From: Candidatus Bathyarchaeota archaeon
GTDB taxonomy: Archaea > Thermoproteota > Bathyarchaeia > Bathyarchaeales > Bathycorpusculaceae
Reading direction: 5' to 3'
Assembly: GCA_963827165.1 (NCBI GenBank)
Contig: CAWGZR010000003.1
Coordinates: 224,001 to 288,000, forward strand
DNA length: 64,000 nucleotides
Part shown: positions 1-19,364 of the stretch, piece after piece
Layout: each line of letters begins with the position of its first letter
Numbering within the stretch: the stretch's first letter is position 1
Notes under the pieces: model-generated
The model's database searches: none
The model's input: only the letters and a program-made list of their open reading frames with translations
What the model was told of the DNA's origin: nothing
Translations under genes and position numbers: made by a program

Positions 1-1333
1 TGATTACCTGGTTCCCGTTTCTCTGAGCGGAAAGAACAATTTTTCCTGTTTCGTTCTTGCTTGCGTTTATCCTTTTCTCAGGCAATTCTATACCGTGATC
101 AATGCTGTTCCGCAGAAGATGAATCAACGGCTCGCCAATTTCATCCAGCACTGTTCTATCAATTTCGATATCTCGTCCTTCCATTTCCATGTCGATCTTC
201 TTGCCTTTCTTTAAGGATAAGTCTCTCACCAGGCGTGGGAACCGGTCAAAGATTTGGCTTACAGGAACCATGCGAACCTGCATAACCAGATCCTGTAAAT
301 CAGCAGTCAAACGATCGATGTTTTCGGTTATATGCTTTAACGATTCGTTGCTGCTATCTAATGTCATCTGTAGAAGAGCAATTTTATTAATAACTAACTC
401 GCCTACCCAATTCATCAGCTTGTCTAATTGGTCAAACTTCACTCGAACAGTTTGGGTAGATTGCGAATCCACACAAACTTTAGTTATTTTTTTGTCTTCA
501 ATTGTCAATACATAGTTGTTCAAAGGCTGAAGTGATGCAGACGCAGGGGTTAAAAAACTGTCTTTAACCAACGGAACTATGGGTTCGAAAGAAGACACAT
601 CAATCTGTTCTACTTCAAGAACCTGTCTGGCAGAAGCTGCAACCGTTTTCTGATCAAATTTACTAGTTATTGCGATCCTGAAACCTTCACCGAGCTTTTG
701 CTCATCCAAATCTCCCTTTGAGGGATCGGTCTTAATCACTTTTCCCACCTCAGAAATCTTATCCAAAACCATGCTTGCCCGAATGCTCTTGTACTCACAA
801 TCTTTGCTGAACTTCAACTTCATTAGAAAACATTGTTCGCCTAAACTCTGCGCGTTTTCTATTGCCTTTTTCTCCCATTCGTCAAGTTCTAACCTTTTGT
901 TTGCGGGCGGTGATTTTGAGACTTGCTCGTTTTTGGTCTCCGCAGTCTTCTGTAACGATCTCGCGGATTCCAATTTGCGTTTGAGGTCCTCGACTGCAAT
1001 TTCGCCATCGACCTGGTTCTTGATTCGGTCTAGTCTGTCAGTTAAGGCGTCAACACATTCTAGAAGCGCACTGATTAAGTTGCATGACGGAGAATTGCCC
1101 TTTCGCATATCGTCAAATACATCTTCCATTTTATGCGTAAGTTCCTGAAAATCCTTGAACCCCATCATCCCTGATGAACCCTTCAAGGTGTGGGCTGATC
1201 TGAAAAGCATGTTAACAACCTCCTTGTTTTCGGGTTCTTTTTCTAAGATTAGCATTGATTGGGTGATTGTATCTATGTGCTCCTTTGCTTCATCTATGAA
1301 TAGCTGTCTGTATTGATCGGTATCAAGCGCCAA
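1..1333 (-). CDS. cheA: Chemotaxis histidine kinase CheA (3' end runs off the window)
   Basis: Manual translation from TTG at 1333 (SD AAGGAG upstream). Hpt motif LFRSAHTLKGSSGMMGF, dimerization VRVKFDQLDKLMNWVGELVINK, N-box EPLIHLLRNSIDHGIE. Not in the ORF track because there is no stop in the window. Confidence 0.95.
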   Translation of the reverse strand, partial: MALDTDQYRQLFIDEAKEHIDTITQSMLILEKEPENKEVVNMLFRSAHTLKGSSGMMGFKDFQELTHKMEDVFDDMRKGNSPSCNLISALLECVDALTDRLDRIKNQVDGEIAVEDLKRKLESARSLQKTAETKNEQVSKSPPANKRLELDEWEKKAIENAQSLGEQCFLMKLKFSKDCEYKSIRASMVLDKISEVGKVIKTDPSKGDLDEQKLGEGFRIAITSKFDQKTVAASARQVLEVEQIDVSSFEPIVPLVKDSFLTPASASLQPLNNYVLTIEDKKITKVCVDSQSTQTVRVKFDQLDKLMNWVGELVINKIALLQMTLDSSNESLKHITENIDRLTADLQDLVMQVRMVPVSQIFDRFPRLVRDLSLKKGKKIDMEMEGRDIEIDRTVLDEIGEPLIHLLRNSIDHGIELPEKRINASKNETGKIVLSAQRNGNQVI

Positions 1334-1500
1334 TTTAATTTTTTCCGCTCCTTAAGGACAAGTTTTTCCTCAGCCAGATTCAAGACATTCTGCGACAGCA
1401 TAGGCTATTTGCTCGAGTGTGTCTTTTCTGGCACAGCCATAATTCTTACTTAGAGCGATTTGGCAAAACAAAAATCGTTTGCCATGCTTCGCTTTGCCAG

Positions 1501-2337
1501 TTATCTTTGAGGTTTCTGATAAACCCTTGCCAAAAGGTCTATTTGCCGAAACTTCGTGCTTGGTTCGCCCGTTAAGATTTCAGATTTTCCCGTGACGAGG
1601 TATCCGCCGTCTTTAAGTGAATCGTAGAAGTTCATGTGAATTTTCTGTTGGCTTTCTTTTGAAAAGTAAATCATCACATTTCTGCAGAGGACTAGGTCAA
1701 GGCAATGGTGCAAAGATGGCGTATTCAAATCTACATGTTCAAAACGAATGATTCGTTTGACAAAATCATTTACTTTGCAGCTTTCTCCATTCTTAGTGAA
1801 GAACTTTTTAATTGAAAATTCGTCGAGAAAACTCAGTTGTTTCTGAAGGTATACTCCCTCTTCAGCTTTAGCTAAAGCGTCTTTATCAAAATCTGAAGCG
1901 TATATGGTTACGGGATGGCTTTCTATCTTTTGGCCAAGTATTTTATGTACCAAAATGGCTAAGGAATAAGGCTCTTCTCCGGTTGCGCATCCGGCGCTCC
2001 AAATTCGAACATGATTTGAAGATAGCAGTATTTTGGGAAGCAATGTTTTTTGGAGGTAAGTGTAAACGTCTACGTCTCGAAAAAACGTCGTGAAGTTAAT
2101 GGTTAAGTCGTTAAGGAGGTCCTTGTATTCTTCGGGATTCTTCCTTAAGTAAACAACGTATTTACCATATTTATCGGATTCAGTAACCCTAAGCCTAATT
2201 TTAAAACGCCGATGGAGATATTCGTCCCTGTAGCCAGAACAGTCTAAGCCGGAATTTTCATGGATCATTTTTTTGACTCTTTCGAAAGCCATTCTTTCCA
2301 TGAAATCGCCAGTGGATTCGGTCTTAGCCTGCAACAT
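1501..2337 (-). CDS. cheR: Chemotaxis methyltransferase CheR
   Basis: LTINFTTFFRD, RIWSAGCATGEEPYS, CRNVMIYF motifs. Confidence 0.95.
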   Translation of the reverse strand: MLQAKTESTGDFMERMAFERVKKMIHENSGLDCSGYRDEYLHRRFKIRLRVTESDKYGKYVVYLRKNPEEYKDLLNDLTINFTTFFRDVDVYTYLQKTLLPKILLSSNHVRIWSAGCATGEEPYSLAILVHKILGQKIESHPVTIYASDFDKDALAKAEEGVYLQKQLSFLDEFSIKKFFTKNGESCKVNDFVKRIIRFEHVDLNTPSLHHCLDLVLCRNVMIYFSKESQQKIHMNFYDSLKDGGYLVTGKSEILTGEPSTKFRQIDLLARVYQKPQR

Positions 2338-2382
2338 TAATCAACTTCCAATTAGCTCCCTCAATGTTCCTCAATATTTGAC

Positions 2383-3045
2383 TCATTTAAGTAGACTCAT
2401 AGATTTTTGATTAAGAATGTTTTTCATTTCTTGACTTGGAAAAATGATCAATATGCATTTGGCGTTCTCGTTTTGTCTTTTGAACCTTGTATCAAAAATC
2501 AAAGCATTCTGGGAAAGCATTGATTGTTTTATCAGAAAGAAATCGATGACTGTATTGAAAGTATCTACTGTGCTTTGGGGCGTCGTTGGAAAAAGACCAA
2601 CTTGAATGAAATCCGATATTGCTGTCAAGAAAGCGCCTATCAGAATGTTAGCGAGTTCACAGATGGCAGACGTCTCTATTTCTGGAGTTAATTCTTCAAT
2701 TGAAGCAGCAAAAGTCATCATAGCAGCAATTTTCTTCGCTTCACTTAATTCGAAAGCTAAAAGAAGGTCGCATCCGTACTTTTCGGAAAGTTGCATGTAA
2801 ACCGCTTCTATAGGCATATCGTGCATATCGAAAAACTGCGGAATCAAATGCGGCTGAATGTTTCGTATTTTTGGAACCTCGATGGTTATCTGTTGTTGAA
2901 GAATTTCCGACAGCGCAGTTGCTGCATGGCCAGCTCCGATACTTCCAAGCTCCAAGAGAATGCCTAAATCTAATTCAGGTTTATCTGAAGACGCGGAGGT
3001 ATCTGAGTAATCTTTCGTTTGTGTGATTCTGATTTGTTGGTTCAT
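2383..3045 (-). CDS. cheC: CheY-P phosphatase CheC
   Basis: ELGSIGAGHAATALS and AICELANILIG repeats typical of CheC. Confidence 0.9.
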   Translation of the reverse strand: MNQQIRITQTKDYSDTSASSDKPELDLGILLELGSIGAGHAATALSEILQQQITIEVPKIRNIQPHLIPQFFDMHDMPIEAVYMQLSEKYGCDLLLAFELSEAKKIAAMMTFAASIEELTPEIETSAICELANILIGAFLTAISDFIQVGLFPTTPQSTVDTFNTVIDFFLIKQSMLSQNALIFDTRFKRQNENAKCILIIFPSQEMKNILNQKSMSLLK

Positions 3046-3668
3046 AGCTTTCTAGTTTCCCCATTAAAACACTTTATAGTTACTACGCCTGATCTAACGT
3101 CGAAACTTATCCTCCGACCATGTGAGCCGCCAACATCCTCGCCTCTAAGTCGTACATTATATTTTGAAAGCACCGTCTTTACTGCTCTTACATTTTTGCC
3201 GCCTATATCTAAATATTCGGAATTTAGATTAGCAAACATATTTGCCCCGCCGGCTATTTTAGCAAAAAGGCACGATTCTTTCTCGTTCTTTTTCCGTATG
3301 CCATTTACCAGCGCGGGAATCGCTGTATCAGCATATTTTGATGGAAGAGGTTCGTTTGCCATGTCTCCAGAATATGGAAGCATTACGTGAGCTAACCCCC
3401 CACATTTATGCAGCGGATCATGTACACAAATTGCTACGCATGACCCGACGCTTGTTAATAGCTCAACGGATCCGCTTTCCACTTTCATGTCTGCCATGTC
3501 GACTCGAACCTCTTCCACCTTTGGCGCTGTGTTAGCTTCAATCGTTATGCATGATGCTGGTTCCAACTGCTCATAGGCAAATGCGGGTTTATTTCTGTTA
3601 GGAACGTTAATTGTTAATTTATTGTTACAGCAGCCTTCGAGGGATGAAACCATCCGGGGTAGCCTCAA
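3042..3668 (-). CDS. cheD: Chemoreceptor glutamine deamidase CheD (true start may be downstream)
   Basis: GSCVAIC, GGLAHVMLP, KIAGGANMF, IGGKNV, EDVGGSHGR motifs. Confidence 0.93.
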   Translation of the reverse strand: MRLPRMVSSLEGCCNNKLTINVPNRNKPAFAYEQLEPASCITIEANTAPKVEEVRVDMADMKVESGSVELLTSVGSCVAICVHDPLHKCGGLAHVMLPYSGDMANEPLPSKYADTAIPALVNGIRKKNEKESCLFAKIAGGANMFANLNSEYLDIGGKNVRAVKTVLSKYNVRLRGEDVGGSHGRRISFDVRSGVVTIKCFNGETRKL

Positions 3669-4033
3669 CAGTACCTTGAAAGTGCTTCTATTACTTTTTG
3701 AGGTTGAAAGGGTTTTATTACGAAGTCCTTTGCGCCCGACTTAATCGCTTCGACTATTAGGGATTGCTGACCCATTGAACTGCACATAACTACCTTGGCT
3801 GATGGATCCGCAGCGACGATCTGTTTGAGTGCTTCTATACCGTCTTTTGCTTTTGGGCCAGGAGGCATGATAATATCCATTAGAACCAAGTCTGGTTTTG
3901 ACTCTTGATATCGGATTATAGCTTCGTCACCTGATCCGGCTTCGGCGATAACTTCATGACCTGCTTGTAGCACTATTTTTTTGAGAACTGCCCTCATGAA
4001 AGAAGCATCGTCTACTATCATTATTGTGCCCAT
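3665..4033 (-). CDS. cheY: Chemotaxis response regulator CheY
   Basis: Stand-alone receiver (VDD, DIIMP, KPF) heading the cheDCRA operon. Confidence 0.92.
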   Translation of the reverse strand: MGTIMIVDDASFMRAVLKKIVLQAGHEVIAEAGSGDEAIIRYQESKPDLVLMDIIMPPGPKAKDGIEALKQIVAADPSAKVVMCSSMGQQSLIVEAIKSGAKDFVIKPFQPQKVIEALSRYC

Positions 4034-4281
4034 TATGTTCGCCCTTGATGTATCTTAAGACTCAAGACAATTATATAAAAGGATTACGTAGTAAAACACT
4101 TCATTGTCAACCAATATATCACATACTTAGCGTTAATCGCTGTTTTAGCCATACCCGTAAGAGAAAAATGATACACTCTTAAAACATGGAGTCTGAATTC
4201 AGATTTCTAAGTCGTAATTATATTATATATAAATGATCAGTATTGGGGGTAGCAATACGGAAAAGGAGAACCCCCAAACAA

Positions 4282-5166
4282 ATGACACTTGCATTGGAAA
4301 AACAGGTATTAACAAGAGTTTATGATAAAGAAAAGGAAACCTTCAGGCTGATAAAGAAAGACCAAACATACAACGACCATCTGTCAACAATCGAAGAAAC
4401 ACTTTCGCGGTTTGGTCTGTTAAAAAACGAGATCAAAGTTTACATGTATCTTGCTAGAGCCGGTGAAATGAAGGCAGGCGAGATAGCAGAAGCAATTTCA
4501 CTTCATAGGACAGAAACCTACAGGATCCTGAGAGACTTAGAGAAGAGAGGTGTCGTGTTTTCTATTTTTGAGAAACCACTAAAATTCACAGCTGTTCCGC
4601 TTGAAAAAGCTATCGATTTGCTGGTGGATGCGCAAAAAATCAAGATCAAGCTGTTGGAGCAAGAAAAAGAAAGCGTAGTAAAGCTTTGGCAGTCAATGCC
4701 TCAACCGAAAGTCGCGACCGCAAAAAAAGAGCTCTTTCAAATGCTCGAGGGCGAACAACAGGTGCTTATGAAGGCGGATGAATTGCTTGGAAGATGCGAA
4801 AAAGAATTCCAGGTCTTCGCCGCGGGGGATTACCTTGCACAGCTGTATTACAGTGATTTCTCAGATAAGCTGAAGATTTACGCGGATAAAGTTAAAGTTA
4901 CGTTAGTCAGTGACACTTCGATTAAAAGTGCGTATTTCCTAGGTCAATTGAAATGGCTTAGCGATTCAGAGCGGATCGCCGATGACCAAAACCTGCCCTG
5001 CTTCATGATATGTGACAATAAAGAAGTCTTGATCGTATTTCACGAAAAAGAAAGAACCAATGATGAAGAATCAAAGAAAAAAGATAAGACTGCAGCAATA
5101 TGGACAAACTACGGGGCATTCATCAATGTTCTCGGAATGCTATTCTCAAAACTATCAGAAGCATGA
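4282..5166 (+). CDS. TrmB-family transcriptional regulator
   Basis: N-terminal wHTH FGLLKNEIKVYMYL...LHRTETYRILRDLEKRG. ATG at 4282 preferred over TTG at 4243. Divergent from cheY. Confidence 0.85.
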   Translation: MTLALEKQVLTRVYDKEKETFRLIKKDQTYNDHLSTIEETLSRFGLLKNEIKVYMYLARAGEMKAGEIAEAISLHRTETYRILRDLEKRGVVFSIFEKPLKFTAVPLEKAIDLLVDAQKIKIKLLEQEKESVVKLWQSMPQPKVATAKKELFQMLEGEQQVLMKADELLGRCEKEFQVFAAGDYLAQLYYSDFSDKLKIYADKVKVTLVSDTSIKSAYFLGQLKWLSDSERIADDQNLPCFMICDNKEVLIVFHEKERTNDEESKKKDKTAAIWTNYGAFINVLGMLFSKLSEA

Positions 5167-5275: not shown

Positions 5276-6250
5276 TTACGCAGTTATTTCCTGACAGTCA
5301 ACAGTTTCTACCCATCTTTTTCCTGCATCCGTTAACTGTTTGCGGAACTCTGGAGTTGGAATCATAAGCAAGTACCCGTTTGCAGAACTTTCGTTTCTGT
5401 TGAATTGCATTTTGAAAATCAAGGCAGATTTCGCCAGAATCAGTTGTCTAGCCAAAAAAACATCGATTATAGCTTCGAAGTAATCGCTGAAAACGTTAGG
5501 CCTCGAAGGAACAATCGTTAATTCGGCAAAATTTGCAATAGAACTGTAAAAGGCACAAAGCATTATGGAGCCCATTTCCTGAACGGCTGACATGGCGATG
5601 TCCTGACTCACGGGTGTTGATTCACTTGTCATTAGGGACGCAATCTTCTTTACCTCTTCAGAATCAAAGACGATTAAAGTGTCGCAACCGGGTTCCGTCG
5701 CTAAAGCCATGTGAACTGCTGTCACCTGACTGTCGGGTGCGCCGATGAGTCTGGCAATTAGATGTAGCGGCCCAGTTTCAAGTTTTGGAACGCTTATTTG
5801 AATGGGTTGTTTGGTCAACTTTGATAGAACCGTTGCGGCATGCCCAGCGCCTATGTTTCCAATCTCGGTGAGCACTCGCAGATCGGTACAGAGCGCTAGC
5901 GATTCTAAGAGTTTCTCTGGTTCAAAGGGCTTGACTACGAAGGCTTTTGCGCCGGCTTTCATCGCTTCATTGATCAAGCTGTTTTCATCTAACGCGCTGC
6001 AAATGATTACTTTGGCTTGTGGATCCTCTTTCATTATTTTTTTCAAGGCATCAAGGCCAGTTTTTGCGATTTTTCCTTCGTTCATCACGATGTCTAAAAG
6101 CAGAATCTCGGGTTTAAGCTGCAGATACTTTTCAATAGCCTCGTCTCCGTTGGATGCCTCTCCAATTACGTCGTAACCCGATTCTTCAAGAATTCTTTTC
6201 AGAAGAGTTCGCATATACGTATTATCGTCTGCTAAGAGGATGGATGTCAT
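5276..6250 (-). CDS. CheY-like receiver fused to a CheC phosphatase domain
   Basis: Residues 1-120 receiver (ADD, DIVM, KPF), then TEIGNIGAGHAATVLS CheC domain. Confidence 0.9.
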   Translation of the reverse strand: MTSILLADDNTYMRTLLKRILEESGYDVIGEASNGDEAIEKYLQLKPEILLLDIVMNEGKIAKTGLDALKKIMKEDPQAKVIICSALDENSLINEAMKAGAKAFVVKPFEPEKLLESLALCTDLRVLTEIGNIGAGHAATVLSKLTKQPIQISVPKLETGPLHLIARLIGAPDSQVTAVHMALATEPGCDTLIVFDSEEVKKIASLMTSESTPVSQDIAMSAVQEMGSIMLCAFYSSIANFAELTIVPSRPNVFSDYFEAIIDVFLARQLILAKSALIFKMQFNRNESSANGYLLMIPTPEFRKQLTDAGKRWVETVDCQEITA

Positions 6251-6364: not shown

Positions 6365-7774
6365 TCAGCAGATTGATGGTTTTGAAAAGCGCGCCGTTTC
6401 GGATTTTGTTTCGCGCAGTTTCAAGCCGGGGCGAACCAAAAGGAGTATTAGCAAAATTGCAAGCAAAGCATCGCACGCTATGGCACCGTAGAGGAGTAAC
6501 TGCAAACTCGAAGAGTCGCTGCTATCTTTGGGGTAATTGATGTTGACAACGTAGAACATGTATCGCGCCCTACCGATCAAGGAGGGTTGACCAGGAGGAT
6601 CGGTCCATCCTACAATAACGCACTGGTTCTTGCTAGTTGGGATTACGCTGTAGGCTTCCTGATAGCCAGTGTCCCCTTGCGTGCAACTCCAAATAACATT
6701 GCCTGAATCACTAATTTTGAATAGCCAAAAGTCTCGGTTCCCTGCGCCGAAGGAAAAAGTGAAGCCTCCGACTAAATAGCCACCGTCACCCGAAGGAGTA
6801 ATGCATGATGGCGAATCTGCATTCTTGCCGCCAACCGTCTTTGTCCACAGCAAGGTTCCATTGAAATTAACTTTTATCACCCAAGCGTGCATGTTGCCAT
6901 CGGGGGCTTGAGTGTTCCCAACCATCACATATCCATCTGACGCTTCTGTAATGGCTGTCGCTTCTTGGCTTCCTTTCTCGCCATACGTTTGATTCCAAAC
7001 TACATTTCCTTCAGGATCGATTTTCATCAATAAGAAACTGAAGTCACTTGGTCCACGAGGATCCGCATAGCCACATACCACATAATTGCCATCAGATGCT
7101 TGAACCCCTGCTTTCGCGACGGAATCGGATGTAGGGCTGTAGGTTTTATTCCAAAGGATATTGCCGTTAGTATCGATTTTGACTATCCAAGCTTGAGATT
7201 GCGCGCCTCCATTTTGTGAGCTCAATCCTAAAAGTATAAAACCGTCTGAGGAGGCGAAAGCGGAGTAGAACTCGTCTGTTCCGTTACCACCGATTATTTT
7301 ATTCCAGATCAAGTCTCCTTGTTCATCAATTTTTGCTACAAATCCATTCATATCTCCAGAAGACAAAAATTCGTTGCCTACAAGTAAGAAGCCATTGGTT
7401 AAGTTGAGCACGGACCTAATTTCTGTGCCTGACCCTACAAGGAAGGTTTTGTTCCAAACTGCGTTGCCTTCTTGGTCAAGCATTAAGGCCCAGCCTACGG
7501 TTACATCTGTTTGGTTTGATTCTGACGAACCGACAACGAGGTAGCCACCACCGGCTGGCAGGGCGCAGTATGCTCGGTCATCGTCTCCCAATGTGCCGTA
7601 GGTTTTTGTCCAAATCACGTTTGCGGGCAAAACGCTGACTGATGTGCCAGTGATCTTTGGTAAAGAATCACTCTCGGCTGCGGCCGTGGTCACGGTAAGA
7701 ATAATTGAAACGATGAATAGTGCGAGTAAAATTTTAGTTGCACTTGGTCGATGCATGCGACGTTTCCTCTCCAT
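6365..7774 (-). CDS. Secreted, membrane-anchored beta-propeller repeat protein
   Basis: Signal peptide, about 7 repeats of 'K.D..G...W.KT.G', C-terminal TM helix with basic tail. Confidence 0.75.
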   Translation of the reverse strand: MERKRRMHRPSATKILLALFIVSIILTVTTAAAESDSLPKITGTSVSVLPANVIWTKTYGTLGDDDRAYCALPAGGGYLVVGSSESNQTDVTVGWALMLDQEGNAVWNKTFLVGSGTEIRSVLNLTNGFLLVGNEFLSSGDMNGFVAKIDEQGDLIWNKIIGGNGTDEFYSAFASSDGFILLGLSSQNGGAQSQAWIVKIDTNGNILWNKTYSPTSDSVAKAGVQASDGNYVVCGYADPRGPSDFSFLLMKIDPEGNVVWNQTYGEKGSQEATAITEASDGYVMVGNTQAPDGNMHAWVIKVNFNGTLLWTKTVGGKNADSPSCITPSGDGGYLVGGFTFSFGAGNRDFWLFKISDSGNVIWSCTQGDTGYQEAYSVIPTSKNQCVIVGWTDPPGQPSLIGRARYMFYVVNINYPKDSSDSSSLQLLLYGAIACDALLAILLILLLVRPGLKLRETKSETARFSKPSIC

Positions 7775-7831: not shown

Positions 7832-8590
7832 TCATTCAGTGCATGTTACATTTGCCGCGACAACTATCCCTCGTTGATCCTGACAGACAGCTGACACATG
7901 AAGAGGGAAAAATAATTGATCTGTTTCAGAATTAAATGACACTGAATATGTTCCGCTCCCGAAATCATTGACGATTGGCGAATTCACTTTTGTCCATGTT
8001 TCGGCTGCGTTTTCGTAGTAAAAAGAAAGGTTTTGGGCTAAAGCGGGCGAGCCTTCATTTTGCATTTTGACGGTCAAGTTCACTTGCGTCGAGTTTTCCA
8101 GTTGAAGGGAGCTTCCACTCAGATTCAATTCTGATGTTACGTTAACTACATATTCGGATGTGGACGTTGAGGTAGTCGCAGTTGACTCAATTTCTACAAG
8201 AATACATGCACTCGATATCCCTTCCCCGTTTGCACCCCATGAAATGCACATGCCGTTCTGATATGGAGCATCGGTTGAGAGAATGAAATTTGTTTGAAGT
8301 ATAGACTGGTATGAATTGGAAGCGATTTCGGATTTTAGTTCGTCCAAGTCTGTTGTCAACGCGTTGGGGCTGCCGCCGTTGGTCACGTTTGCTAAAGCAC
8401 TGATCAGGGTGTTTCTTGCGGCTTGCTGGTAGGTTGAGAAAATGCTGGTTGTGTCGGTGGCATCTGTTGGAACATCTTTTTCGGTTTCAATAATAAAGAT
8501 GGCTGTTGAAAGCAGAACCAATGCCACCATTAAGGCGGTTATTACAATAACTTGACCCGAGTTGCTGCGTCTGAAATTGCGGCTTTTCAC
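7832..8590 (-). CDS. Minor pilin-like protein (class III signal peptide)
   Basis: RRSNSG|QVIVITALMVALVLLS, located in the T4P operon. Confidence 0.75.
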   Translation of the reverse strand: MKSRNFRRSNSGQVIVITALMVALVLLSTAIFIIETEKDVPTDATDTTSIFSTYQQAARNTLISALANVTNGGSPNALTTDLDELKSEIASNSYQSILQTNFILSTDAPYQNGMCISWGANGEGISSACILVEIESTATTSTSTSEYVVNVTSELNLSGSSLQLENSTQVNLTVKMQNEGSPALAQNLSFYYENAAETWTKVNSPIVNDFGSGTYSVSFNSETDQLFFPLHVSAVCQDQRGIVVAANVTCTE

Positions 8591-10072: not shown

Positions 10073-11617
10073 TTAGCTTGGTCCTACGTTCGGATTCAAT
10101 CCCATTTGGAGTGGGTTGAATGTTTTTGCCAGTAACATTTGGGATAACACTAGGGACACGTACGCAACCGAAGCCAGTATAGCTGCGTGCTTGAATCCTG
10201 CGCCCAAGTTGCCTTCGCTGATTTTGCCTATGAAAAATCCTGAAATCCAACATTGGATGATTATTCCAACGGAAAACGTTCCAAGTTGGCTTTGCATCAC
10301 TGAAGTGGTTGATGCTAAGACACTGCTACTTACCACGCCAGAGATCATGTTTGCTGTAAATGCTACTATTACTGTGGTAACTGCGATTAATACGCTCCAC
10401 ATAAGGGCAAGAAGCACATATGGCTTCAATAGTTCACGGCGGTTAATCTGAAGTTCTCGTTCTTTTTCGCTATATTCCGCAAGTATTTCAAGTGACTGGA
10501 TAGAGTTCCCGCCGACTTCTATGGTTTCAACTACCATGGCGAAGTTAATTATGACAAACCAGCTACGAATTTTAGTGCGCAAGTTATCAAAAGTCTTTCT
10601 TAGAGGAATACCCCACTCTATTTGACTGCGCATTAGATCCAGAAATTTTGAGAATGATCCGTAGTCCTTCCTTTTTGTGGCTTGAATGATACTTTTCTCA
10701 GGGGAAAGACCTGCTTTCTGGGACTCGGATATGTTTCGAATGAACGCTGGAATTGAATCTTCAGCATTATAGTTTATTTTGGAAATTTGACGGTATTGAA
10801 TAGCAATCGGCACTGAAGAAGCGACCAAGCAAATAGTGGTAACTTCAGGTAACCCTATTGGGCCTAACCCTTTCGATAATGAAGGAAGCAACCCAAAAGC
10901 ACCTATCACCGCAAAAGCAGGAATCACAAACATCAACGCTTTTTTATAAAGGTCTTTCAAGTTTGGGAAAGCACTTTTTTGCATGCTGTGAGCCATCAAG
11001 ATGAAGAGAACGGACATGAAGGGGAGCAAGATGAATGCTATTAAGTAAGAAATCGTAGGTGAAATGGAGACGGACATTCCCCCCGTGAGTGCACCAATGT
11101 TTGAAGCTGATAGAACGACAAAGAGAATGTATGTGCATAATACGACTATTAGCATAACCGAGTATGCTTCAACCAGAGTTACAATCCTCTCTATTGAGCG
11201 GTTGAGACCGTTAGTTCTTAGCTCAAAGATTTCTTTTAGCTGGCTTTTCATGTAATCGACTAGTTTTCCGCCGCTTCTAATTGATGAGACAAATCCGCCG
11301 AGGAAATTTCTGTACTGCTTTGACACCGTAGTTTCTGCCCGAAGCTGCATGACTGTAAGGGGATCTTTGCCTAGAACCTCGACTTGGCGAATAATTTCCT
11401 CTGCTTCTTTTTTGAACCACGGAAGGAACGAGAGTTTTCGCATTTTCTTCCAACTGTCATATGGGGAGACTCCGCTTGCAGCTAAAAGAGTAAAAACAAT
11501 CAATGCAAATGGGAGTTCCGATTCAGTTTTTTCTTTTTCTTCGCTTCCAGCTTTTGAGATGGATCCGAAAAGCTTGCCGATAAATCCGCCAGGCACCTTC
11601 ATCTCAGGATTCCTCAT
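10073..11617 (-). CDS. Type IV pilus membrane platform (TadC/PilC/ArlJ family, two T2SSF domains)
   Basis: Multi-pass membrane protein with duplicated T2SSF-like domains, downstream of the ATPase. Confidence 0.9.
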   Translation of the reverse strand: MRNPEMKVPGGFIGKLFGSISKAGSEEKEKTESELPFALIVFTLLAASGVSPYDSWKKMRKLSFLPWFKKEAEEIIRQVEVLGKDPLTVMQLRAETTVSKQYRNFLGGFVSSIRSGGKLVDYMKSQLKEIFELRTNGLNRSIERIVTLVEAYSVMLIVVLCTYILFVVLSASNIGALTGGMSVSISPTISYLIAFILLPFMSVLFILMAHSMQKSAFPNLKDLYKKALMFVIPAFAVIGAFGLLPSLSKGLGPIGLPEVTTICLVASSVPIAIQYRQISKINYNAEDSIPAFIRNISESQKAGLSPEKSIIQATKRKDYGSFSKFLDLMRSQIEWGIPLRKTFDNLRTKIRSWFVIINFAMVVETIEVGGNSIQSLEILAEYSEKERELQINRRELLKPYVLLALMWSVLIAVTTVIVAFTANMISGVVSSSVLASTTSVMQSQLGTFSVGIIIQCWISGFFIGKISEGNLGAGFKHAAILASVAYVSLVLSQMLLAKTFNPLQMGLNPNVGPS

Positions 11618-13196
11618 TTGAAGCTTCTTTAACGGCTAACTCTGCAAGGTTGAGTGAGCTGTTTAACGCTTTGTGCACGCTTCTGAAGTCTCGGAGGTTT
11701 TTACTGACCATGTTTAGAAGGATCTGTTTTCTTCGTTGAAACTCTTCTTCAACTACGCTTAAGGGTGCATCTAGATTCTTTGCGATTTTATTGAACAAGT
11801 AGCTCTTGTCGAGGGTTTCCTGGAATGTGTCTGTTGAAATGTTCCAGCTGAACACTTCAAGGGGAAGGCCGCTGTCGGTAATTTCAGCAATTTTAACGAA
11901 TTTTCGTGAAGAAACCTTTCTTTCTTGAAGGTTGATGCTTTGGGTTTTGACTTGCTTAACGACTATGACACAATTCATCAGCGAGAGAATGTTCTGTGGA
12001 ATGTTCATAGGAGGCTGCGTGAGCCTTTTTATGACCGTATCCACATCGTCAGCATGCATAGTGCACATTCCACCGTGGCCTGTAGCTAAAGCCTGGAAAA
12101 GCACGTATGCTTCTTCGCCTCTAATTTCGCCTACAAGAATCAAAGCTGGCCTATGCCTTACGGCTGACTTTATCAAGTCATAAAGTGTGACTTCTCCCGT
12201 GCTGTCCCCACCGAAACCAGTTCTCGCAATCGTTGAAACCCAGTTTTCTTGCGGCAAGTTGATTTCTTGGACTTCCTCAACGGAAACCATCTTGAAATCT
12301 GGACGTACCAAGCATGCAATGGCGTTCAACGCGGTTGTTTTTCCAGCGCCTGTTGGACCCACGATCATTACTGACATTTTGTTTTCCATCAGCATCCAGA
12401 GATAAGCGGCGATTGACTCGTCGATTGTTTCGTTCATAATTAAGTCGACTATGGTTAGAGGGTCATCTTTGAATTTTCTGATGGTGAAGCTGGTTCCTGC
12501 TGGGGTTGTTTCTTTTCCGAATGAAACTGCGAGCCTGTGCTTTCCGGGAAGAGTCAAATCAACTATGGGATGCGCTATGCTAACATGTTTCCCTTGCCTG
12601 TGCACAATCCGTGTTATGAAGTCGTCAAGTTCTTCCTCTTCTGTAAAAATGATGTTGGTTCGTGCGTTAGCGTATTTTCTATGATAAATGTATACGGCTT
12701 TGTTTATGCCCAAGACACTTATGTCTTCTATTTGCTGGTCACAAATCAGACCATCTATTTTTCCGTAGCCGATCAAATCTTTTTCGAGATAATAAATTAT
12801 TTTTTTTATGCCTACGTGGTTAGCTCCTTCGAAGGCTTTTTGATGTTCTTCAATAATTGTTGGAAGTTGCCTATGGAACGAGTCAACCAGAGTTTCATCA
12901 AATCGTGGCGCTTTGAGTTCATACTCTAATATGTTCTTTAGTTGGTTGTATGACTCCCGCTCTTCTCGAGTAAGCGTCAGTTCGTCGACTGCATAGAAGT
13001 AGCTGCCCTCGGATTCGTCTTGGAAGATCCAGGCATAAGAGAACGGCGGATTAAGAGGGTAACTTTCAACTTCAACGTAACCCTCAGGCACCTTATAGCC
13101 TTGAATACCTAAGTATGCCACAAGTTCCTCATCGGAAGTTTTAACTTTCGCTTCCTCTTCATCCCGTTTCTTTTTTCCCAATTTCATTTTCATCAT
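11604..13196 (-). CDS. Type IV pilus assembly ATPase (VirB11/TadA/ArlI family)
   Basis: Walker A GPTGAGKTT, VSVEEVQEI Asp box, LVGEIRG Walker B, TGHGGMCTMHA His box. Confidence 0.95.
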   Translation of the reverse strand: MMKMKLGKKKRDEEEAKVKTSDEELVAYLGIQGYKVPEGYVEVESYPLNPPFSYAWIFQDESEGSYFYAVDELTLTREERESYNQLKNILEYELKAPRFDETLVDSFHRQLPTIIEEHQKAFEGANHVGIKKIIYYLEKDLIGYGKIDGLICDQQIEDISVLGINKAVYIYHRKYANARTNIIFTEEEELDDFITRIVHRQGKHVSIAHPIVDLTLPGKHRLAVSFGKETTPAGTSFTIRKFKDDPLTIVDLIMNETIDESIAAYLWMLMENKMSVMIVGPTGAGKTTALNAIACLVRPDFKMVSVEEVQEINLPQENWVSTIARTGFGGDSTGEVTLYDLIKSAVRHRPALILVGEIRGEEAYVLFQALATGHGGMCTMHADDVDTVIKRLTQPPMNIPQNILSLMNCVIVVKQVKTQSINLQERKVSSRKFVKIAEITDSGLPLEVFSWNISTDTFQETLDKSYLFNKIAKNLDAPLSVVEEEFQRRKQILLNMVSKNLRDFRSVHKALNSSLNLAELAVKEASNEES

Positions 13197-13636
13197 TCAC
13201 CTGACAAAGTTAAGCTGACGGTTTTGTTTACACAAGAGCATTGCAAAAGAGGCCTGCCGTAAGTACTAATGAAAGCCCCTGAAGCGACTACCTGGGCTGG
13301 TATGCAGACGCCTGACGGATTCAGGTTGACTGTTGATCCAAGTCCTGAGCCAACCCATGCTCCAGAAGAATCGTTTGCAATGCAGATCCAATAAACTTGG
13401 TTTCCCACTTGGGTTGGCAGATCCAAATATTGCGTTACATTTTCGTTGTCTTGAGTTACGTGCGAAAGAATAAGGAGACTTTGTGTGGCAACGTATTGTT
13501 CAATGTTTGTCAATTGCTGGCTTTCCGCTTCGTTTTTTACGTTTGCCGTGGCGAGGCAGCAGCTTGCGACGATAATGACTCCTACTATAAGCGAGGCAAA
13601 CAAAGAATAAACCCATCCTGGAATTATCGACGGCAT
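13193..13636 (-). CDS. Minor pilin-like protein
   Basis: N-terminal hydrophobic helix, 'LDLPTQVGNQVYWICI' pattern of archaeal pilus accessory proteins. Confidence 0.65.
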   Translation of the reverse strand: MPSIIPGWVYSLFASLIVGVIIVASCCLATANVKNEAESQQLTNIEQYVATQSLLILSHVTQDNENVTQYLDLPTQVGNQVYWICIANDSSGAWVGSGLGSTVNLNPSGVCIPAQVVASGAFISTYGRPLLQCSCVNKTVSLTLSGE

Positions 13637-13639
13637 TGT

Positions 13640-14479
13640 TTACGGTGTGTCCTCCTCGACTGATACGTTGGAAATGACAATCTGAACGTGAATAATCGCA
13701 CCAGCGGGAGTGCTCGAAATCGGCACAGAAACCTTTCCAAATATACCATTCAATTGCGAAGTAACTACAAAGTTTTCAGTTTGATGGTTAATTTGGTAAG
13801 TTGCAGTTGTCATCTGGGCACTTAAGCAAGAGATCTTCAGCGGAAGCTCTCCACACAACGAAAGTGGTGTCGACGAATTCAAGTTAACAATGTAAATGCG
13901 AATGTCTGTTACTGCTTGACCGTTTTCTGTTCCAGCAGGTGCATAGGTTAATTCCGGTCGGTATCCTAAATGGATTTGAGGCCCCTGTAAGCTGCCTGCA
14001 ATGAAAAGCTGGCTTGTTGATGAGCCACTTTGGTTCGTAATTGCGCTGCTATCGCCTTCGATGTAGAATCCTAAGTCGGCTGATTGTGAAGGAGGTAGAT
14101 CATATACGATTTGGCCCATATTTGAGTTGAAGATGGTTTCGTTGGTTCCTGCGTTCTCTAAAACACTCAACATCAAATTGTTAGAAGATGGTTGAATGTT
14201 TATCTGTCCGCCTGAATCCCGGAAGTCAAGGACGGATGCTGACCCTGGCTGAGAAATTACAGACAAGATGTTGTTATCTAAAGAAGTCATATCTTGTTGT
14301 GCAGTTAACACTTGCAAAGACTGCTGCCGATCGTTGACCTGCTGAACGGCAAACACGTAAGTTACCGATATCAAAAGCAAAGTCGAAACGAAGAGAATCA
14401 GGTAAGTTACAGGTACAGCTAACGCTTTGCTGGAATGAAGGAAACGGGGATGCGTGTGTTTCCGCGAAGTCACCGTCAA
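13640..14479 (-). CDS. Minor pilin-like protein (class III signal peptide)
   Basis: SSKA|LAVPVTYLILFVSTLLLISVTY followed by an amphipathic helix. Confidence 0.72.
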   Translation of the reverse strand: MTVTSRKHTHPRFLHSSKALAVPVTYLILFVSTLLLISVTYVFAVQQVNDRQQSLQVLTAQQDMTSLDNNILSVISQPGSASVLDFRDSGGQINIQPSSNNLMLSVLENAGTNETIFNSNMGQIVYDLPPSQSADLGFYIEGDSSAITNQSGSSTSQLFIAGSLQGPQIHLGYRPELTYAPAGTENGQAVTDIRIYIVNLNSSTPLSLCGELPLKISCLSAQMTTATYQINHQTENFVVTSQLNGIFGKVSVPISSTPAGAIIHVQIVISNVSVEEDTP

Positions 14480-15638: not shown

Positions 15639-16231
15639 CTACGGATTGTACGCTTGGACGTTGGCTTCTTGGTAGTACATTGCTTGTGAAGTGAACACAG
15701 TGATTCCAACAGTTAAGCCAATGTCGTTAATTGTAATGCTGTCTGGGCAAACGACATAGACGGTCATGGTATCGCCAGATTTCAAAGTGATGTCGCCTGA
15801 GGCTGGGGATTGCCAGTTGCAGCTGCAATATTTGCGGCTGCAGAAACGCCTGTATCTCCAGAAGTGCCAGGCACATATAGAAGGTCGGTGGTTACGGTGA
15901 GCTACCTCGAAATAGATGGTGAGGCCGAAGATCTGCGGTTTGTCCTCTGACTGTGATTTTAGTTATAACAACGTCTCGTCCGCCAGTGTTAATTATCACA
16001 AAAGCCGCCTCAGGGGGTGTAACGCCAGTCTTATCCTCGATAGTTCCTTGTGGAACACCATACGTGGAGGTATTCAAGCGATAGACTTTCCTCTTGAACA
16101 CGTGTGCTAGTAACGTTGATTGCGTAGTAAGTGACGACGCCTGCGAGAAGCACTGAAACCACTAGAATAATCAATGTAGTAACGACTGTACTTAAAGCCA
16201 AACGATTCTTCAGTATATTCTTCATTTTCAT
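15639..16231 (-). pseudogene. Major pilin paralog A1, frameshifted (about 4 indels in variable segments; real or consensus artefact)
   Basis: MKMKNILKNRLA|LSTVVTTLIILVVSVLLAGVVTYYAINVTSTRVQEESL, then ...AAFVIINTGGRDVVITKITVRGQ..., then LKSGDTMTVYVVCPDSITINDIGLTVGITVFTSQAMYYQEANVQAYNP*, read across different frames. Confidence 0.85.
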
Positions 16232-16301
16232 TTTATTTTTCACTTGAAAAAACAAATCCGCAAACTAAAGATAAGTAAACTTGTGCATACAAAAAAAGAC
16301 A
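16232..16301. repeat. 70-bp upstream region duplicated at 17218-17287
   Basis: Identical tttatttttcacttgaaaaaacaaatccgc...gcatacaaaaaaagaca ahead of pilins A1 and A2. Confidence 0.9.
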
Positions 16302-16623: not shown

Positions 16624-17217
16624 TTATGCGGCTTGGACGTTTGCTTCTTGGTAGTACATTGCTTGCGATGTGAACACAGTGATTCCAACTGTTAAGCCAA
16701 TGTCGTTGATGGTGATGCTGTCTGGCATTGGATGTAAGCAATCATGTGTATCGCCAGAATGAAGGGTTAATGTCGCCAGCTCCGGCGGTCAATTAACATG
16801 GTAGAGCTGTTATGACCCTGCTACCGAGACATTCAGCGATAGCATCGGCGGTTCATATTGTAGGTCAGCTGAATGAAGCTGTTAAGGTAGTAACTGGGTG
16901 ATATACCGGTAGTCCACAGCACCAAAGTCAGCGGTTTGTCCTCTGAATTGGATTTTATTTATAACCACGTCTCGTCCGCCAGTGTTAATTATCACAAAAG
17001 CAGCTTGAGCGGGATTACCACTGGTGGGGCCACCCGATGAAGTGACCAACGTGTAGGTATGTCAAGATAGACTTTCCTCTTGGACACGTGTGCTTGTAAC
17101 GTTGATTGCGTAGTATGTGACGACGCCTGCGAGAAGAACTGAAACCACTAGAATAATCAATGTAGTAACGACTGTACTTAAAGCCAAACGATTCTTCAGT
17201 ATATTCTTCATTCTCAT
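16624..17217 (-). pseudogene. Major pilin paralog A2, frameshifted (not in ORF track)
   Basis: MRMKNILKNRLA|LSTVVTTLII...QEESLS, QAAFVIINTGGRDVVINKIQFRGQTADFG, PDSITINDIGLTVGITVFTSQAMYYQEANVQAA*. Several indels in and next to the variable segments. Confidence 0.85.
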
Positions 17218-17300
17218 TTTATTTTTCACTTGAAAAAACAAATCCGCAAACTAAAGATAAGTAAACTTGTGCATACAAAAAAAGACAAATAAAAAAGAAA

Positions 17301-17324: not shown

Positions 17325-17340
17325 ATCCGCTATTTTAGTC

Positions 17341-18006
17341 TTAGTCAGCTTGTACGTTGCATTCTTGGTAGTACATTGCTTGTGCCGTGTAGATAGTTAT
17401 GCTGACTGTTAAGCCAATGTCGTTAATAGTAATGCTATCAGGATTAACGATGTAGAGCAGCATTGTATCACCCGATTTCAGAACCAAATCAGTTGAGGCG
17501 TAGCTAAATACGAATCCACCAGTGGTCACTGTGCCGCCAAGTAGACTAAATTGCTGTCCTGCAGGTGTTGTTGTGAGAGGGTCGGTTCCCGGTTGTACCA
17601 TAGTAGGCTGGAAGTACATGTCAGTTTGTATAGGCGAACTGGTTACTGAGTCCACTACAAATTGAGCGTCGTGAGTCGCGTCTACGAAGGATGACCATGC
17701 TGCGTCTTGTCCTCGGATCTCGATCTTCGTGATGACGACGTCTCTACCGCCAGTATTAATAACCTTAACAGAAGCCTGAGAATAAATTGCACTTCCTGCT
17801 GCTTGTCCTGGGTTGAGCCAAATGTGCGCGTCACTCAATGAAAGGCTTTCTTCTTGAACCCGTGTGCTAACGACGTTGATTGCATAGTAGGTGACGACTC
17901 CTGCCAAAAGCACGGAAATAACGAGAATAATTAGTGTTGCAACGACCTCGCTAAGAGCGTACTTGTTTTTCATGAATCTTTGGAAAGAATTGTAGTTGAG
18001 CTTCAA
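17341..18006 (-). CDS. Major type IV pilin paralog B1 (intact)
   Basis: Class III signal KNKYA|LSEVVATLIILVISVLLAGVV, INTGG motif, GGAGGTGA SD. Confidence 0.9.
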   Translation of the reverse strand: MKLNYNSFQRFMKNKYALSEVVATLIILVISVLLAGVVTYYAINVVSTRVQEESLSLSDAHIWLNPGQAAGSAIYSQASVKVINTGGRDVVITKIEIRGQDAAWSSFVDATHDAQFVVDSVTSSPIQTDMYFQPTMVQPGTDPLTTTPAGQQFSLLGGTVTTGGFVFSYASTDLVLKSGDTMLLYIVNPDSITINDIGLTVSITIYTAQAMYYQECNVQAD

Positions 18007-18201
18007 TTGTATTTTTCACCTCCCGCTATAGTGAAAAGCGATGAGTTTCTGATACCTGTGAATTTTTGATGTTTAACGTATGAACCCACCTTTAGTCATG
18101 CAGTTAGGCGGTTTCATTATAAATCTCTTCTGTAGCACGATTTAAGATACGGCGTACATGTCGAAAATAAGGTAGCACAAGCCAACTTCACAATATGAAT
18201 T
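18007..18201 (-). promoter_or_regulatory. About 195-bp upstream/promoter region duplicated at 19365-19555
   Basis: Near-identical sequences with SD GGAGGTGA, BRE/TATA GAAGAGATTTATAAT and two GTAGCAC direct repeats 40 bp apart. Confidence 0.8.
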
Positions 18202-18673
18202 CCAAATCACACGGCTTAAGGAAAATTGTGGACTATTGTCTTATATGAGTAGACTTCTCACGTTCATATTTTACTTACCCCAGATGATTTTTAGCTGTTA
18301 TCAATGTTTGTACGTCTTTTTTCCTTCAATCACAACAGCTTTAAAAAATCATTGAACTTTTTTTTAACGCCGGTGTTTCATCTGTTGCGTCAAACAGACG
18401 GGACTTTAGAAATCTTTGAAAAAGGCCCTGCCCTCTAAGCTGCTTCCGTAAACTCAAAATATCTTTGCAACGGAACCTTTCAATCTCTTTTTCAATCGAC
18501 CGCACTTCCTAAACGAGTTTTCGTTTCATCTGCAGACTAACAAGTGTCGAACGAAAACTAAGTTGTCTTTTAAATTTTGTTTCGATTAAGTTAAAAAAAA
18601 CAGATAAGGTAAAAATGGGGTTCTAATGCCCCCATACTCTGGACCATTTTGCGTTATGCGGTTTTTATTTTGC

Positions 18674-19364
18674 TTAGTTGGCTTGGACGTTGCATTCTTG
18701 GTAGTACATTGCCTGCGCAGTGTAGATGGTTATACTGACGGTTAAGCCAATGTCGTTGATGGTGATGCTGTCAGGATTGATTATGTAGAGCAGCATTGTG
18801 TCACCTGATTTGAGAACCAAGTCAGTGGTGGCGTAGTTGAAGATGATATTCCTCCGGCGGTTAGATGCTGGTGCAGTCGTTGCTAGCTAAGACCTGTTAA
18901 GGCCTGCATAGATTGGTTCTGTCTGGCTGCTGGGTCAGCTGTTGGGATTGCCATAGACTAGCCTTGGAAGTACATGTCAGTTTGTATAGGTGAATTAGTT
19001 ACTGAATAGATAACGAATTGACTGTCTAATGGGCACTGTCTGCCCAGGATGACCATGCGGCGTCTTGTCCTCGGATCTCAATCTTAGTGATGACGACGTC
19101 TCTACCGCCAGTATTAATGACCTTAAAAGAAGCCTGAGAATAGGTTGAACTTCCTGCTGCTTGACCTGGGTTGAGCCATATGTGCGCGTCACTCAAGGAA
19201 AGGCTTTCTTCTTGAACTCGTGTGCTAACGACGTTAATTGCGTAGTAGGTGACGACACCTGCCAAAAGCACTGAAATAACCAGGATAATTAGTGTTGCAA
19301 CGACCTCGCTAAGAGCGTACTTGTTTTTCATGAATCTTTGGAAAGAATTGTAGTTGAGCTTCAA
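18674..19364 (-). pseudogene. Major pilin paralog B2, disrupted in the variable segment
   Basis: First ~105 aa almost identical to B1. C-terminus FNYATTDLVLKSGDTMLLYIINPDSITINDIGLTVSITIYTAQAMYYQECNVQAN* intact. Stops and indels only between about 18850 and 19030. Confidence 0.85.

Follow-up and report, generated by a model that had tools for sequence, protein, structure and literature searches.

In archaea, the archaellum is so far the one known target of chemotaxis, which reaches it through CheF. What, then, does a chemotaxis gene set do in an archaeon that has neither, and that carries the set next to an adhesive type IV pilus operon? The question is raised by a stretch of 64,000 nucleotides (G000:C3:224001-288000, hereafter the window) from the genome of a soil Bathyarchaeon, G000, whose assembly of 3.13 Mb in 14 contigs is 94.5% complete and 3.9% contaminated. 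Here a complete Che pathway without CheF directly adjoins, at its 3' end, an adhesive TACK-type type IV pilus operon that is conserved in many relatives. We tentatively posit that this pathway controls the pilus independently of CheF, a proposal that we rank first among the alternatives but place a little short of probable, and in which we infer both the protein contacts and the behavioural output. Its pilus may well turn out to be the first in archaea that chemotaxis steers.

The che gene set at the end of a pilus operon

On the minus strand, the locus comprises four pilin copies, p279, p147, an ATPase, a platform protein, p348, p142, p252, p469 and a fusion of a receiver (REC) domain with CheC; a TrmB gene on the plus strand comes next, followed by the genes for CheY, CheD, CheC, CheR and CheA, again on the minus strand. 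Gene calls and family matches agree with the first-pass annotation of this DNA, which had described one co-oriented pilus-che run, TrmB and a DUF5658-like gene excepted. The same annotation let the cluster end at cheA, which proved too short: the remainder of cheA, p134, cheW, cheB and one soluble methyl-accepting chemotaxis protein (MCP) extend the che set leftward of the window (G000:C3:219480-223129). The genes from p279 to p252 overlap or are separated by spacers of 3-14 bp, the CheY-CheC fusion gene begins 114 bp behind p469, the final pilus gene, and TrmB and cheY are divergent across a 209-bp spacer.

The pilus genes include the minimal core of an archaeal type IV filament (PMC13705601). 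The assembly ATPase, which is not ArlI (11604..13196, minus strand, as for all pilus and che genes below; 530 residues; T2SSE, E = 6e-33), is accompanied by a platform protein made as a single polypeptide of 514 residues (10073..11617; T2SSF, E = 7.8e-21). The filament protein has an N-terminus of the conserved class III signal peptide type (KNKYA|LS.VV.TLIILV). This pilin N-terminus, KNKYA|LSEVVATLIILV..., is near-invariant across 17 orthologues, in line with the earlier description of the subunits as pilin-type and not archaellin-type. A class III signal peptidase is encoded on another contig (Peptidase_A24, G000:C9:173744-174106, 35.6 bits vs. a cut-off of 26.5).

Four major pilins had been proposed. 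Four copies in two paralogue pairs are indeed present, but only pil2 (17341..18006, 221 residues) is an intact major pilin open reading frame (ORF) as assembled. Its probable start is Met12, at position 17973, behind which follows a class III signal-peptide-like N-terminus, and its family matches, to Pilin_N (E = 1.4e-3) and UpsA (E = 3e-6), are both below cut-off. Its paralogue pil1 (18677..19364) lies in three frames as assembled, and tblastn with pil2, together with DNA alignment, recovers it in three pieces, one in frame -1 (94% identity), one in frame -3 (66%) and one in frame -2 (88%). The second pair, recognized by DNA alignment, consists of pil3 (16630..17241), broken by 4 in-frame stops as assembled, and pil4 (15651..16255), which like pil1 is broken by frame changes and lies in three frames. 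The breaks in pil1, pil3 and pil4 may be assembly artefacts, the same assembly having indels elsewhere that reads contradict. Tandem pilin matches number 2-3 in relatives.

Around this core stand the accessory genes. Two minor pilins had been predicted upstream of the ATPase, and both candidates are pilin-like: p279 (13640..14479) has an N-terminal hydrophobic helix and is a minor pilin candidate (DUF7289, E = 2.6e-3, below cut-off), and p147 (13193..13636) is a small pilin-like, membrane-anchored protein with no family match. The three minor pilins predicted downstream of the platform correspond to p348 (9012..10058), a membrane-anchored pilus-associated protein with no family match, the small pilin-like p142 (8587..9015) and the pilin-like p252 (7832..8590), each recognized by sequence, each with an N-terminal hydrophobic anchor and none matching a known family. 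The predicted beta-propeller gene is p469 (6365..7774). Its product, a surface protein whose beta-propeller repeats come with a signal anchor and, C-terminally, a membrane anchor, matches the SBBP model at E = 2.3e-9, below the model cut-off.

The pilus operon is conserved well beyond this genome. The window proteins were searched by tblastn in 80 Bathyarchaeial loci from different records, whose orthologous ATPases share 61-87% identity (these loci overlap with the genomes sampled below, and the counts are kept separate). The platform was matched in all 80 loci, p279 and p147 in 79 each, p348 in 77, p142 and p252 in 76 each, the pilin in 73 and p469 in 60, and a TrmB gene closes the pilus locus in 64. 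Pilus and TrmB form an old, widespread unit, to which Che is an accessory in a minority. The ATPase relatives are all labelled Bathyarchaeia or Bathyarchaeota except for two records, L027 and L040, which are labelled Limnocylindrales bacterium and Nanoarchaeia archaeon; they carry the Bathyarchaeial pilus operon with an ATPase identity of 81-85% and are probably mis-binned contigs.

All che genes are full length. Pfam assigns CheY (3665..4033; 72-91% identity across 14 orthologues), CheD (3042..3668), CheC (2383..3045), CheR (1501..2337) and the first 444 codons of CheA (2..1333), the rest of which lies beyond the left window edge, as well as the CheY-CheC fusion (5276..6250; REC plus CheC phosphatase domain) and the TrmB-family regulator (4243..5166, plus strand). 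The core components CheA, CheW, CheY, CheB, CheR and MCP all score over their Pfam cut-offs. The whole cheA gene encodes 685 residues in the order Hpt-P2-dimerisation-HATPase-CheW, with a single Hpt. The MCP is the only one in the genome and is soluble, with no membrane segment and no sensor domain.

In the assembly, a frameshift behind GEMTGKVN interrupts the MCP gene, which in a congener is a single ORF. Contigs of four public sequencing runs were aligned to this region. Two of the runs, from different studies (X1, depth 11.6; X4, depth 3.2), have one base fewer at each of two places 10 bp apart, plus one substitution (G000:C3 ~219928-219938, L005:13928-13938), and further indel differences at L005 13316 and 13450. 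Because the contigs of these two runs give a single 496-residue ORF that matches the congener, the break probably arose in assembly, if it is not a rare variant, and local indel errors may break other genes of the assembly. Decay of the system, to which the frameshift might have pointed, was considered and rejected on account of the intact 496-residue ORF in runs of two studies.

Absence of archaellum and CheF

Genome-wide searches of G000 gave no match for CheF (positive control in 3 archaea), for Arch_flagellin (positive control in 4 archaea) or for FlaC_arch and Arch_fla_DE (likewise with positive controls), no dedicated model being used for ArlX. ArlB, ArlJ, ArlH, ArlF and ArlG of the congener G395 were not found by tblastn either, and the archaellum proteins of that congener matched only paralogous pilus ATPases. 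One KaiC-like gene on contig C1 was considered as ArlH and rejected, as it shares 26% identity with the congener's ArlH and has no ArlH model match; it adjoins another pilus ATPase. The models and tblastn agree with the earlier remark that no ArlH, ArlF/G or ArlC/D/E is visible. That pilus locus on C1 (L006:7977-13809) holds the KaiC-like ATPase, two pilins, the pilus ATPase that comes closest to ArlI among the genome's four (430 bits) and a platform split into two genes.

The place where an archaellum might be expected is also recognizable. In G395, a 9-kb archaellum operon comprises arlB, arlB, arlJ, arlI (510 bits), an arlH that passes the FlaH cut-off, arlF, arlG and two unknown genes. The genes flanking this operon are adjacent in G000 (C5:430173-431432 and 431615-432010), 183 bp apart on an unbroken contig. 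Because the flanks are adjacent, the archaellum in this genus behaves as a presence/absence (gain/loss) cassette, of which G000 has the empty site. The first-pass annotation had named a complete arl operon plus cheF elsewhere in the genome as evidence that would tell against pilus control; none was found genome-wide, and the empty site is contiguous.

The ATPase class and the pilin fold

With the ArlI model, the che-linked ATPase scores 339.7 bits against a cut-off of 550, and true Bathyarchaeial ArlI proteins score 510-658. The four T2SSE ATPases of the genome reach 430, 399, 377 and 340 bits (the last being the che-linked one), all below 550. An ATPase tree of 61 rows (IQ-TREE, LG+G4, quick search) was built from 22 ArlI over the cut-off, 6 Bathyarchaeial ArlI at 510-549 bits, 25 non-ArlI paralogues and 8 orthologues, the ArlI rows being drawn from a phylum sample of 121 genomes. 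The tree parts 29 rows on an ArlI side, one of them a 473-bit row labelled non-ArlI beforehand, from 32 rows on a non-ArlI side, with SH-aLRT 100 each. The che-linked ATPase falls on the non-ArlI side, as sister to the genome's C9 paralogue (support 94). A place inside ArlI, the second finding held at first pass to be damaging to pilus control, is contradicted both by the score (340 bits vs. 550) and by this split.

The best solved relative of the ATPase is the GspE2-type 2oap of A. fulgidus (333 bits; S. acidocaldarius FlaI, 232 bits). No PilT/PilU retraction ATPase was found in the genome, all four T2SSE-family matches being FlaI/GspE2-like, and the PilT family model on the che-linked ATPase gives 45 bits vs. 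319. On the platform, the BasF, UpsF and ArlJ models all score far below cut-off.

The AlphaFold2 (AF2) model of pil2 (pLDDT 87) shows a long N-terminal helix and a beta-sandwich. In structure alignments it scores Z 8.3-8.7 with the pilins of P. arsenaticum, S. acidocaldarius Aap and P. calidifontis, 6.0-7.7 with archaellins and 9.2 with the FlaF/FlaG stator domains. The Foldseek top 50 contain the pilins Iho670, 6nav, 8q30 and 6w8u and no archaellin. The pilin fold was considered as a discriminator between pilus and archaellum and rejected, these Z scores not separating the classes. The modelled fold is the one common to archaeal type IV filaments and does not settle the class.

Che-pilus linkage across relatives

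The positions of CheA and the pilus ATPase were compared in 24 CheA-positive members of the genus, taken from the class and genus samples described below. The two lie within 21 kb of each other in ten genomes (G000, G214, G326, G368, G395, G528, G535, G538, G556 and G511), which is to say that 10 of the 14 congeners with both on one contig have them at most 21 kb apart. Two genomes, G377 (CheA fragment only) and G525, gave no ATPase orthologue match. The third adverse finding named at first pass, a lack of any conserved che-pilus linkage, does not describe these genomes: the linkage recurs in relatives, but is not universal.

Three configurations can be distinguished. The commonest order is pilus, TrmB, VWA, a 275-residue gene (v275), MoxR and cheY-D-C-(C)-R-A-p134-W-B-MCP. 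Configuration (a), pilus-TrmB-(VWA, v275, MoxR)-che, is found in G395, G368, G326, G253, G535, G556, G528 and G538, with rearranged forms in G000, G214, G511 and locus L032; G000 is without the MoxR-VWA module, and its fusion gene is placed between p469 and TrmB. In configuration (b), seen in G090 and G386 of genus g42 (family f5), the che operon is divergent from the pilins and directly upstream of them, cheA ending ~500 bp from the first pilin. Configuration (c) occurs in G124 of family f4, which has no archaellin (L175 = G124:C21:50000-66065), where che cluster and pilus locus, again divergent, are both of another kind, the pilus being Ups-like. The che cluster of G124 has a CheA without P2, its own 344-residue REC-CheC fusion and an MCP with HAMP arrays; at the pilus locus, the pilins resemble UpsA/UpsB, the platform is split and the ATPase reaches 373 with the ArlI model.

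In three genomes with both organelles (G395, G214 and G538), che lies beside the pilus and not beside the archaellum. No che genes were found within ~6 kb of the archaellum at five inspected loci (G214, G193, G320, G142 and G336), two of which have a TrmB paralogue. The order in G395 is archaellum, ~12 kb of purine genes, pilus and che, all within 40 kb. TrmB paralogues with 37-40% identity to the window TrmB end the archaellum operons of three relatives (L167:4943-5782, L168:14620-15435 and L112:8927-9763), and related regulators therefore flank both kinds of filament locus.

A module made up of a MoxR-type AAA ATPase, the 275-residue protein and a VWA protein (L101:13119-15864; also L098/L099, L103, L172, L174, L178, L179, L183 and L184) is divergent from cheY. 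It adjoins cheY in 9/9 inspected genomes with the module (G154, G371, G395, G368, G326, G535, G556, G528 and G538), and stays there even where che is distant from the pilus.

Distribution and selection

In a class sample of 401 genomes, 44 have a CheA dimerisation domain, and 37 remain once 6 weak matches (E > 1e-4) and G000 are removed. None of these 37 CheA-positive Bathyarchaeia has a match for CheF. Archaellin is over the cut-off in 14, with 2 further weak matches, and 23 are without archaellin over the cut-off, including the single-contig assemblies G347, G368 and G090. An orthologue of the che-linked ATPase (at least 54% identity) is present in 28 of the 37.

The genus sample holds 81 genomes, which are kin, so that counts are not independent trials. 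With archaellin over the cut-off, CheA is present in 8 and absent in 2; with no archaellin, it is present in 13 and absent in 58. The 13 (of 21 CheA-positive congeners) include the single-contig G347 and G368 and the 99-100%-complete G157, G326 and G528. Family f5 has three CheA-positive genomes, among them the single-contig G090, and archaellin in none.

Selection was estimated by the Nei-Gojobori method between G368 and G326, both without archaellin and at dS ~1. The dN/dS values are 0.066 for CheA, 0.013 for CheY, 0.052 for CheW, 0.055 for CheB, 0.052 for CheR, 0.113 for CheD, 0.094 for CheC, 0.033 for p134 and 0.057 for the MCP, next to 0.046 for the pilus ATPase and 0.055 for the platform. 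The che genes of these archaellum-less species are under strong purifying selection, although the common ancestor of G368 and G326 may still have had an archaellum.

Weighing the possible outputs of the pathway

Control of the pilus is supported from several sides. There is no other known Che target in the genome, che is kept and selected in archaellum-less lineages, and che-pilus juxtaposition takes three configurations in three families. The congeners with both organelles (G395, G214, G538) have che beside the pilus, and the MCP of G000 is intact in the sequencing runs of two studies. A precedent for movement by an archaeal pilus is given by the Aap pili, which twitch without PilT (PMC11178785).

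A number of observations weigh against this proposal. CheA tracks the archaellum in the genus, being present in 8/10 archaellate genomes vs. 13/71 others (kin genomes). Standard archaella occur in congeners (10/81), and in G017 and G044, of two other families, che genes lie inside or next to archaellum operons; the operon of G017 also holds an ArlD/E-like gene. The pilus operon is present in 80/80 loci with credible che genes within the 10-kb flanks in only 7 (L032, L048, L050, L055, L069 and L082, plus a CheR fragment in L024), a count that leaves out weak receiver/kinase cross-matches in L046, L047 and L086 and is an undercount, cheY starting just beyond the 10-kb flank in several linked genomes. 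The pilus evidently functions in the absence of Che. In the linkage set, CheA and the ATPase are on one contig but distant in G546 (42 kb), G193 (109 kb), G187 (187 kb) and G347 (225 kb), and on different contigs in 8 congeners (G151, G157, G312, G320, G353, G510, G516 and G519). Configuration (a) is perhaps one inherited event, and p134 is also found in archaellate congeners, so the pilus is not singled out by it. A comparison of the regions upstream of che and pilus for a shared promoter motif returned only single 10-mers, matched by 24-57 of 200 shuffles. None of the three findings named as adverse at first pass overturns the idea that Che controls the pilus, but support for it is partial, and it is weakened by the association of CheA with the archaellum and by the unlinked cases.

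The pathway may alternatively be functional with another output, such as another type IV filament locus, the MoxR-VWA module or a non-motility response, its adjacency to the pilus reflecting a variable 'surface-structure' region. We consider this somewhat unlikely. Three further pilus loci are present in the genome, and the TrmB junction is often rearranged. The constancy with which MoxR-v275-VWA stands next to cheY in all nine inspected genomes with the module, even when che is far from the pilus, fits such an output, yet the module is missing in G000, where che is still beside the pilus. A single soluble MCP without a sensor domain is likewise compatible with it. Three independent pilus juxtapositions in three families are, however, unlikely by chance, as 20 kb is < 1% of a 2-3 Mb genome, and in two species the CheY-CheC gene follows the final pilus gene after 114 bp.

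It is also conceivable that Che steers the archaellum in a CheF-independent way, that the cassette has been lost here, and that the undecayed che genes beside the pilus represent an inherited order without function. We regard this as quite unlikely. CheA occurs in 8 of the 10 congeners (out of 81) that have the standard archaellum operon (arlB, B, J, I, H, F, G), the archaellum site is cleanly empty in G000, archaellum, pilus and che of G395 sit inside 40 kb, and che is embedded in the archaellum operons of G017 and G044. Against an orphaned pathway, the majority of CheA-positive congeners (13/21) are without archaellin, 1-contig and 99-100%-complete assemblies included, and the three CheA-positive genomes of family f5 have none either. 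Loss of function would also sit poorly with dN/dS values of 0.01-0.11 over dS ~1 between two archaellum-less species and with che genes that are all full length here, the MCP being intact in reads; no che gene adjoins any of the 5 inspected archaellum loci.

The highly reduced rotary filament that the first-pass annotation offered as an alternative, that is, a stripped-down archaellum-like swimming organelle rotating without ArlH, ArlF/G and ArlX, finds no support and is extremely improbable: ArlI is the best NCBIfam match of the ATPase, as for all archaeal pilus ATPases, and the pilin model scores within ~1 Z unit of the best full-length pilins (8.3-8.7) against archaellins (6.0-7.7), but the ATPase falls outside the ArlI clade and resembles ArlI less than the other three of the genome do, no ArlH, ArlF or ArlG was found in the genome, the archaellin family is without a match, the same pilus operon coexists with a full archaellum in congeners, and five pilin-like accessory proteins together with a surface beta-propeller are typical of adhesive pili.

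A possible route from CheY to the pilus

If Che controls the pilus, the single in-cluster receptor, the MCP, would drive CheA, and phosphorylated CheY would act on the pilus motor, that is, the ATPase or the platform, either directly or via p134. This action would bias pilus extension or retraction and hence surface movement or attachment. The CheY-CheC fusion would end the signal or drain phosphate, CheC, CheD, CheR and CheB would provide adaptation, and TrmB, whose gene diverges from cheY and converges with the pilus operon, may regulate the two jointly. A more specific version, in which two Bathyarchaeial families run CheF-independent chemotaxis with an Aap-like pilus output, p134 serving as the coupling factor and REC-CheC as a motor-proximal phosphate sink, seems unlikely to us as a whole.

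The p134 gene lies at G000:C3:222779-223129 (L005:16779-17129, minus strand), and the true protein has ~116 residues, starting from Met19 of the ORF. Ten orthologues share 40-68% identity. The gene is beside cheA wherever its position was compared, directly downstream of it except in G090 and G386. Among 40 genomes tested it is present in 24, namely in 21/26 of family f1 and 3/3 of f5, with 0/11 among CheA-positive genomes of six other families, and it is absent from 3 CheA-negative control genomes. It marks the che operons of exactly the two families (f1 and f5) where che adjoins this pilus. A profile search of 1.84 billion representatives returned only 27 clusters, 55-159 residues long and none of them domain-fused. 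The AF2 model is beta-rich (pLDDT 76.8); Foldseek gave no match at E <= 0.001, and an exhaustive structure search, topped by EF-P domain I (Z 4.5) and including a PilZ-type entry (Z 3.4), led to no fold assignment. A PH-like or CheF-like fold was absent among the structure matches, and a likeness to phage tail-tube proteins came from low-recognition look-alikes only and was discarded.

Full-length orthologues of the CheY-CheC fusion occur in 5/81 genus-sample genomes, G000 included, and also in G187. In G187 the fusion (82% identity) occupies the same place at the pilus end as in G000 and has an MCP beside it, and the main che operon is 187 kb away. In G535 and G556 it lies within the che operon, between cheA and p134. 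Two congeners have the fusion without nearby che or pilus genes (G393:C2:4997-5944, L177; G512:C82, L180), and one of them, G393 (94% complete), is CheA-negative yet carries it.

Comparison with known systems

Chemosensory control of type IV pili is known from bacteria, in the Pil-Chp system of Pseudomonas, the Frz system of Myxococcus and the Tax/Pix system of Synechocystis. In Tax/Pix (PixG), CheY-like regulators bind PilB1. The locus described here resembles these in that a Che-type pathway with one receptor and two CheY-type receivers is encoded beside a type IV pilus. Unlike them, it has archaeal machinery and no PilT-type retraction ATPase, its CheA has a single Hpt, in contrast to ChpA, and its che genes are of the archaeal/Firmicute CheC/CheD type.

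Among archaea, the available parts of four papers describe Che signalling via CheF and ArlCDE to the archaellum in Halobacterium and Haloferax (PMC2666748, PMC7534055, PMC9126983, PMC7289035). That pathway and the one in G000 have CheA, CheW, CheY, CheB, CheR, CheC, CheD and MCP in common; G000 differs in having no CheF, no ArlCDE and no archaellum, in having a pilus as the neighbouring filament, and in the additional p134 and REC-CheC fusion. The che gene content (CheC, CheD) resembles the archaeal F1 type, and F1 systems of archaea are treated as archaellum-coupled in the part of PMC13747009 available to us.

The Aap pili of Sulfolobus acidocaldarius retract and give twitching without PilT, according to the available part of PMC11178785 (retraction and twitching also in that of PMC11178815), and Aap-like and 4A systems are noted in Bathyarchaeota in the available part of PMC13705601. 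Like the Aap pilus, the pilus of G000 is TACK-type, with an ATPase, a single platform and pilins. The pilins are compared by structural likeness: the model of pil2 aligns with the Aap filament subunit 8q30 at Z 8.6 over 135 residues (root-mean-square deviation 5.6; Foldseek TM 0.54 on the target). Unlike Aap, the pilus here is accompanied by five additional pilin-like genes, by TrmB and by a surface protein of the beta-propeller type, and no AapX-type Fe-S protein was identified. S. acidocaldarius is not known to have a Che system.

The available part of one survey reports no evidence of chemotaxis systems regulating non-archaellum pili (PMC4858521). As far as that part goes, the pilus of G000 is like the Makarova clade 4 pili of the survey, with a non-archaellum VirB11/FlaI-family ATPase, a TadC-like platform, local pilins and regulators, and with vWA/MoxR partners in relatives; unlike there, che clusters repeatedly adjoin such pili. 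In its available part, a 2026 census mentions chemotaxis only with CheF, ArlCDE and the archaellum (PMC13705601). Bathyarchaeota have many pilus kinds (PMC7554672), and the available parts of that paper and of PMC7484942 contain nothing on Bathyarchaeial che genes. A full-text literature search, with subscription journals and supplements outside its scope, found no work linking Bathyarchaeial che genes to pili, archaella or flagella.

Other genes of the window

A 593-residue secreted protein is encoded at 19713-21494 (plus strand), divergent from the pilins, and is kept there in 36/80 related loci. It has no family match and may be a member of the pilus system. The gene at 14918-15349, earlier called DUF5658-like, has no Pfam or NCBIfam match at E <= 0.01, and that label finds no support. 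Farther to the right lie a 1133-residue receiver protein with at least five PAS domains and no output domain (46990-50391, minus strand) and a PAS histidine kinase (53937-55988, plus strand), with two glutamine synthetase genes nearby (44355-45722 and 50773-52242).

Implications for Bathyarchaeia

Few archaea are as abundant in soils and sediments as the Bathyarchaeia, hardly any of which have been brought into culture. With CheF in 0/37 CheA-positive genomes, the archaellate members must therefore couple CheY to the motor by some CheF-free way; the absence of CheF in 37/37 and the CheF-free motor coupling stand even if the pilus proposal is wrong. If that proposal is true, the locus would represent the first sensory control of a non-archaellum filament in archaea, giving chemotactic twitching or regulated attachment, and CheY, CheY-CheC, p134 and the ATPase would be concrete candidates for a new coupling mechanism. 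It would account for the way in which sediment archaea without an archaellum locate surfaces and stay attached to them, and pilus taxis, known in bacteria, would extend to the other prokaryotic domain.

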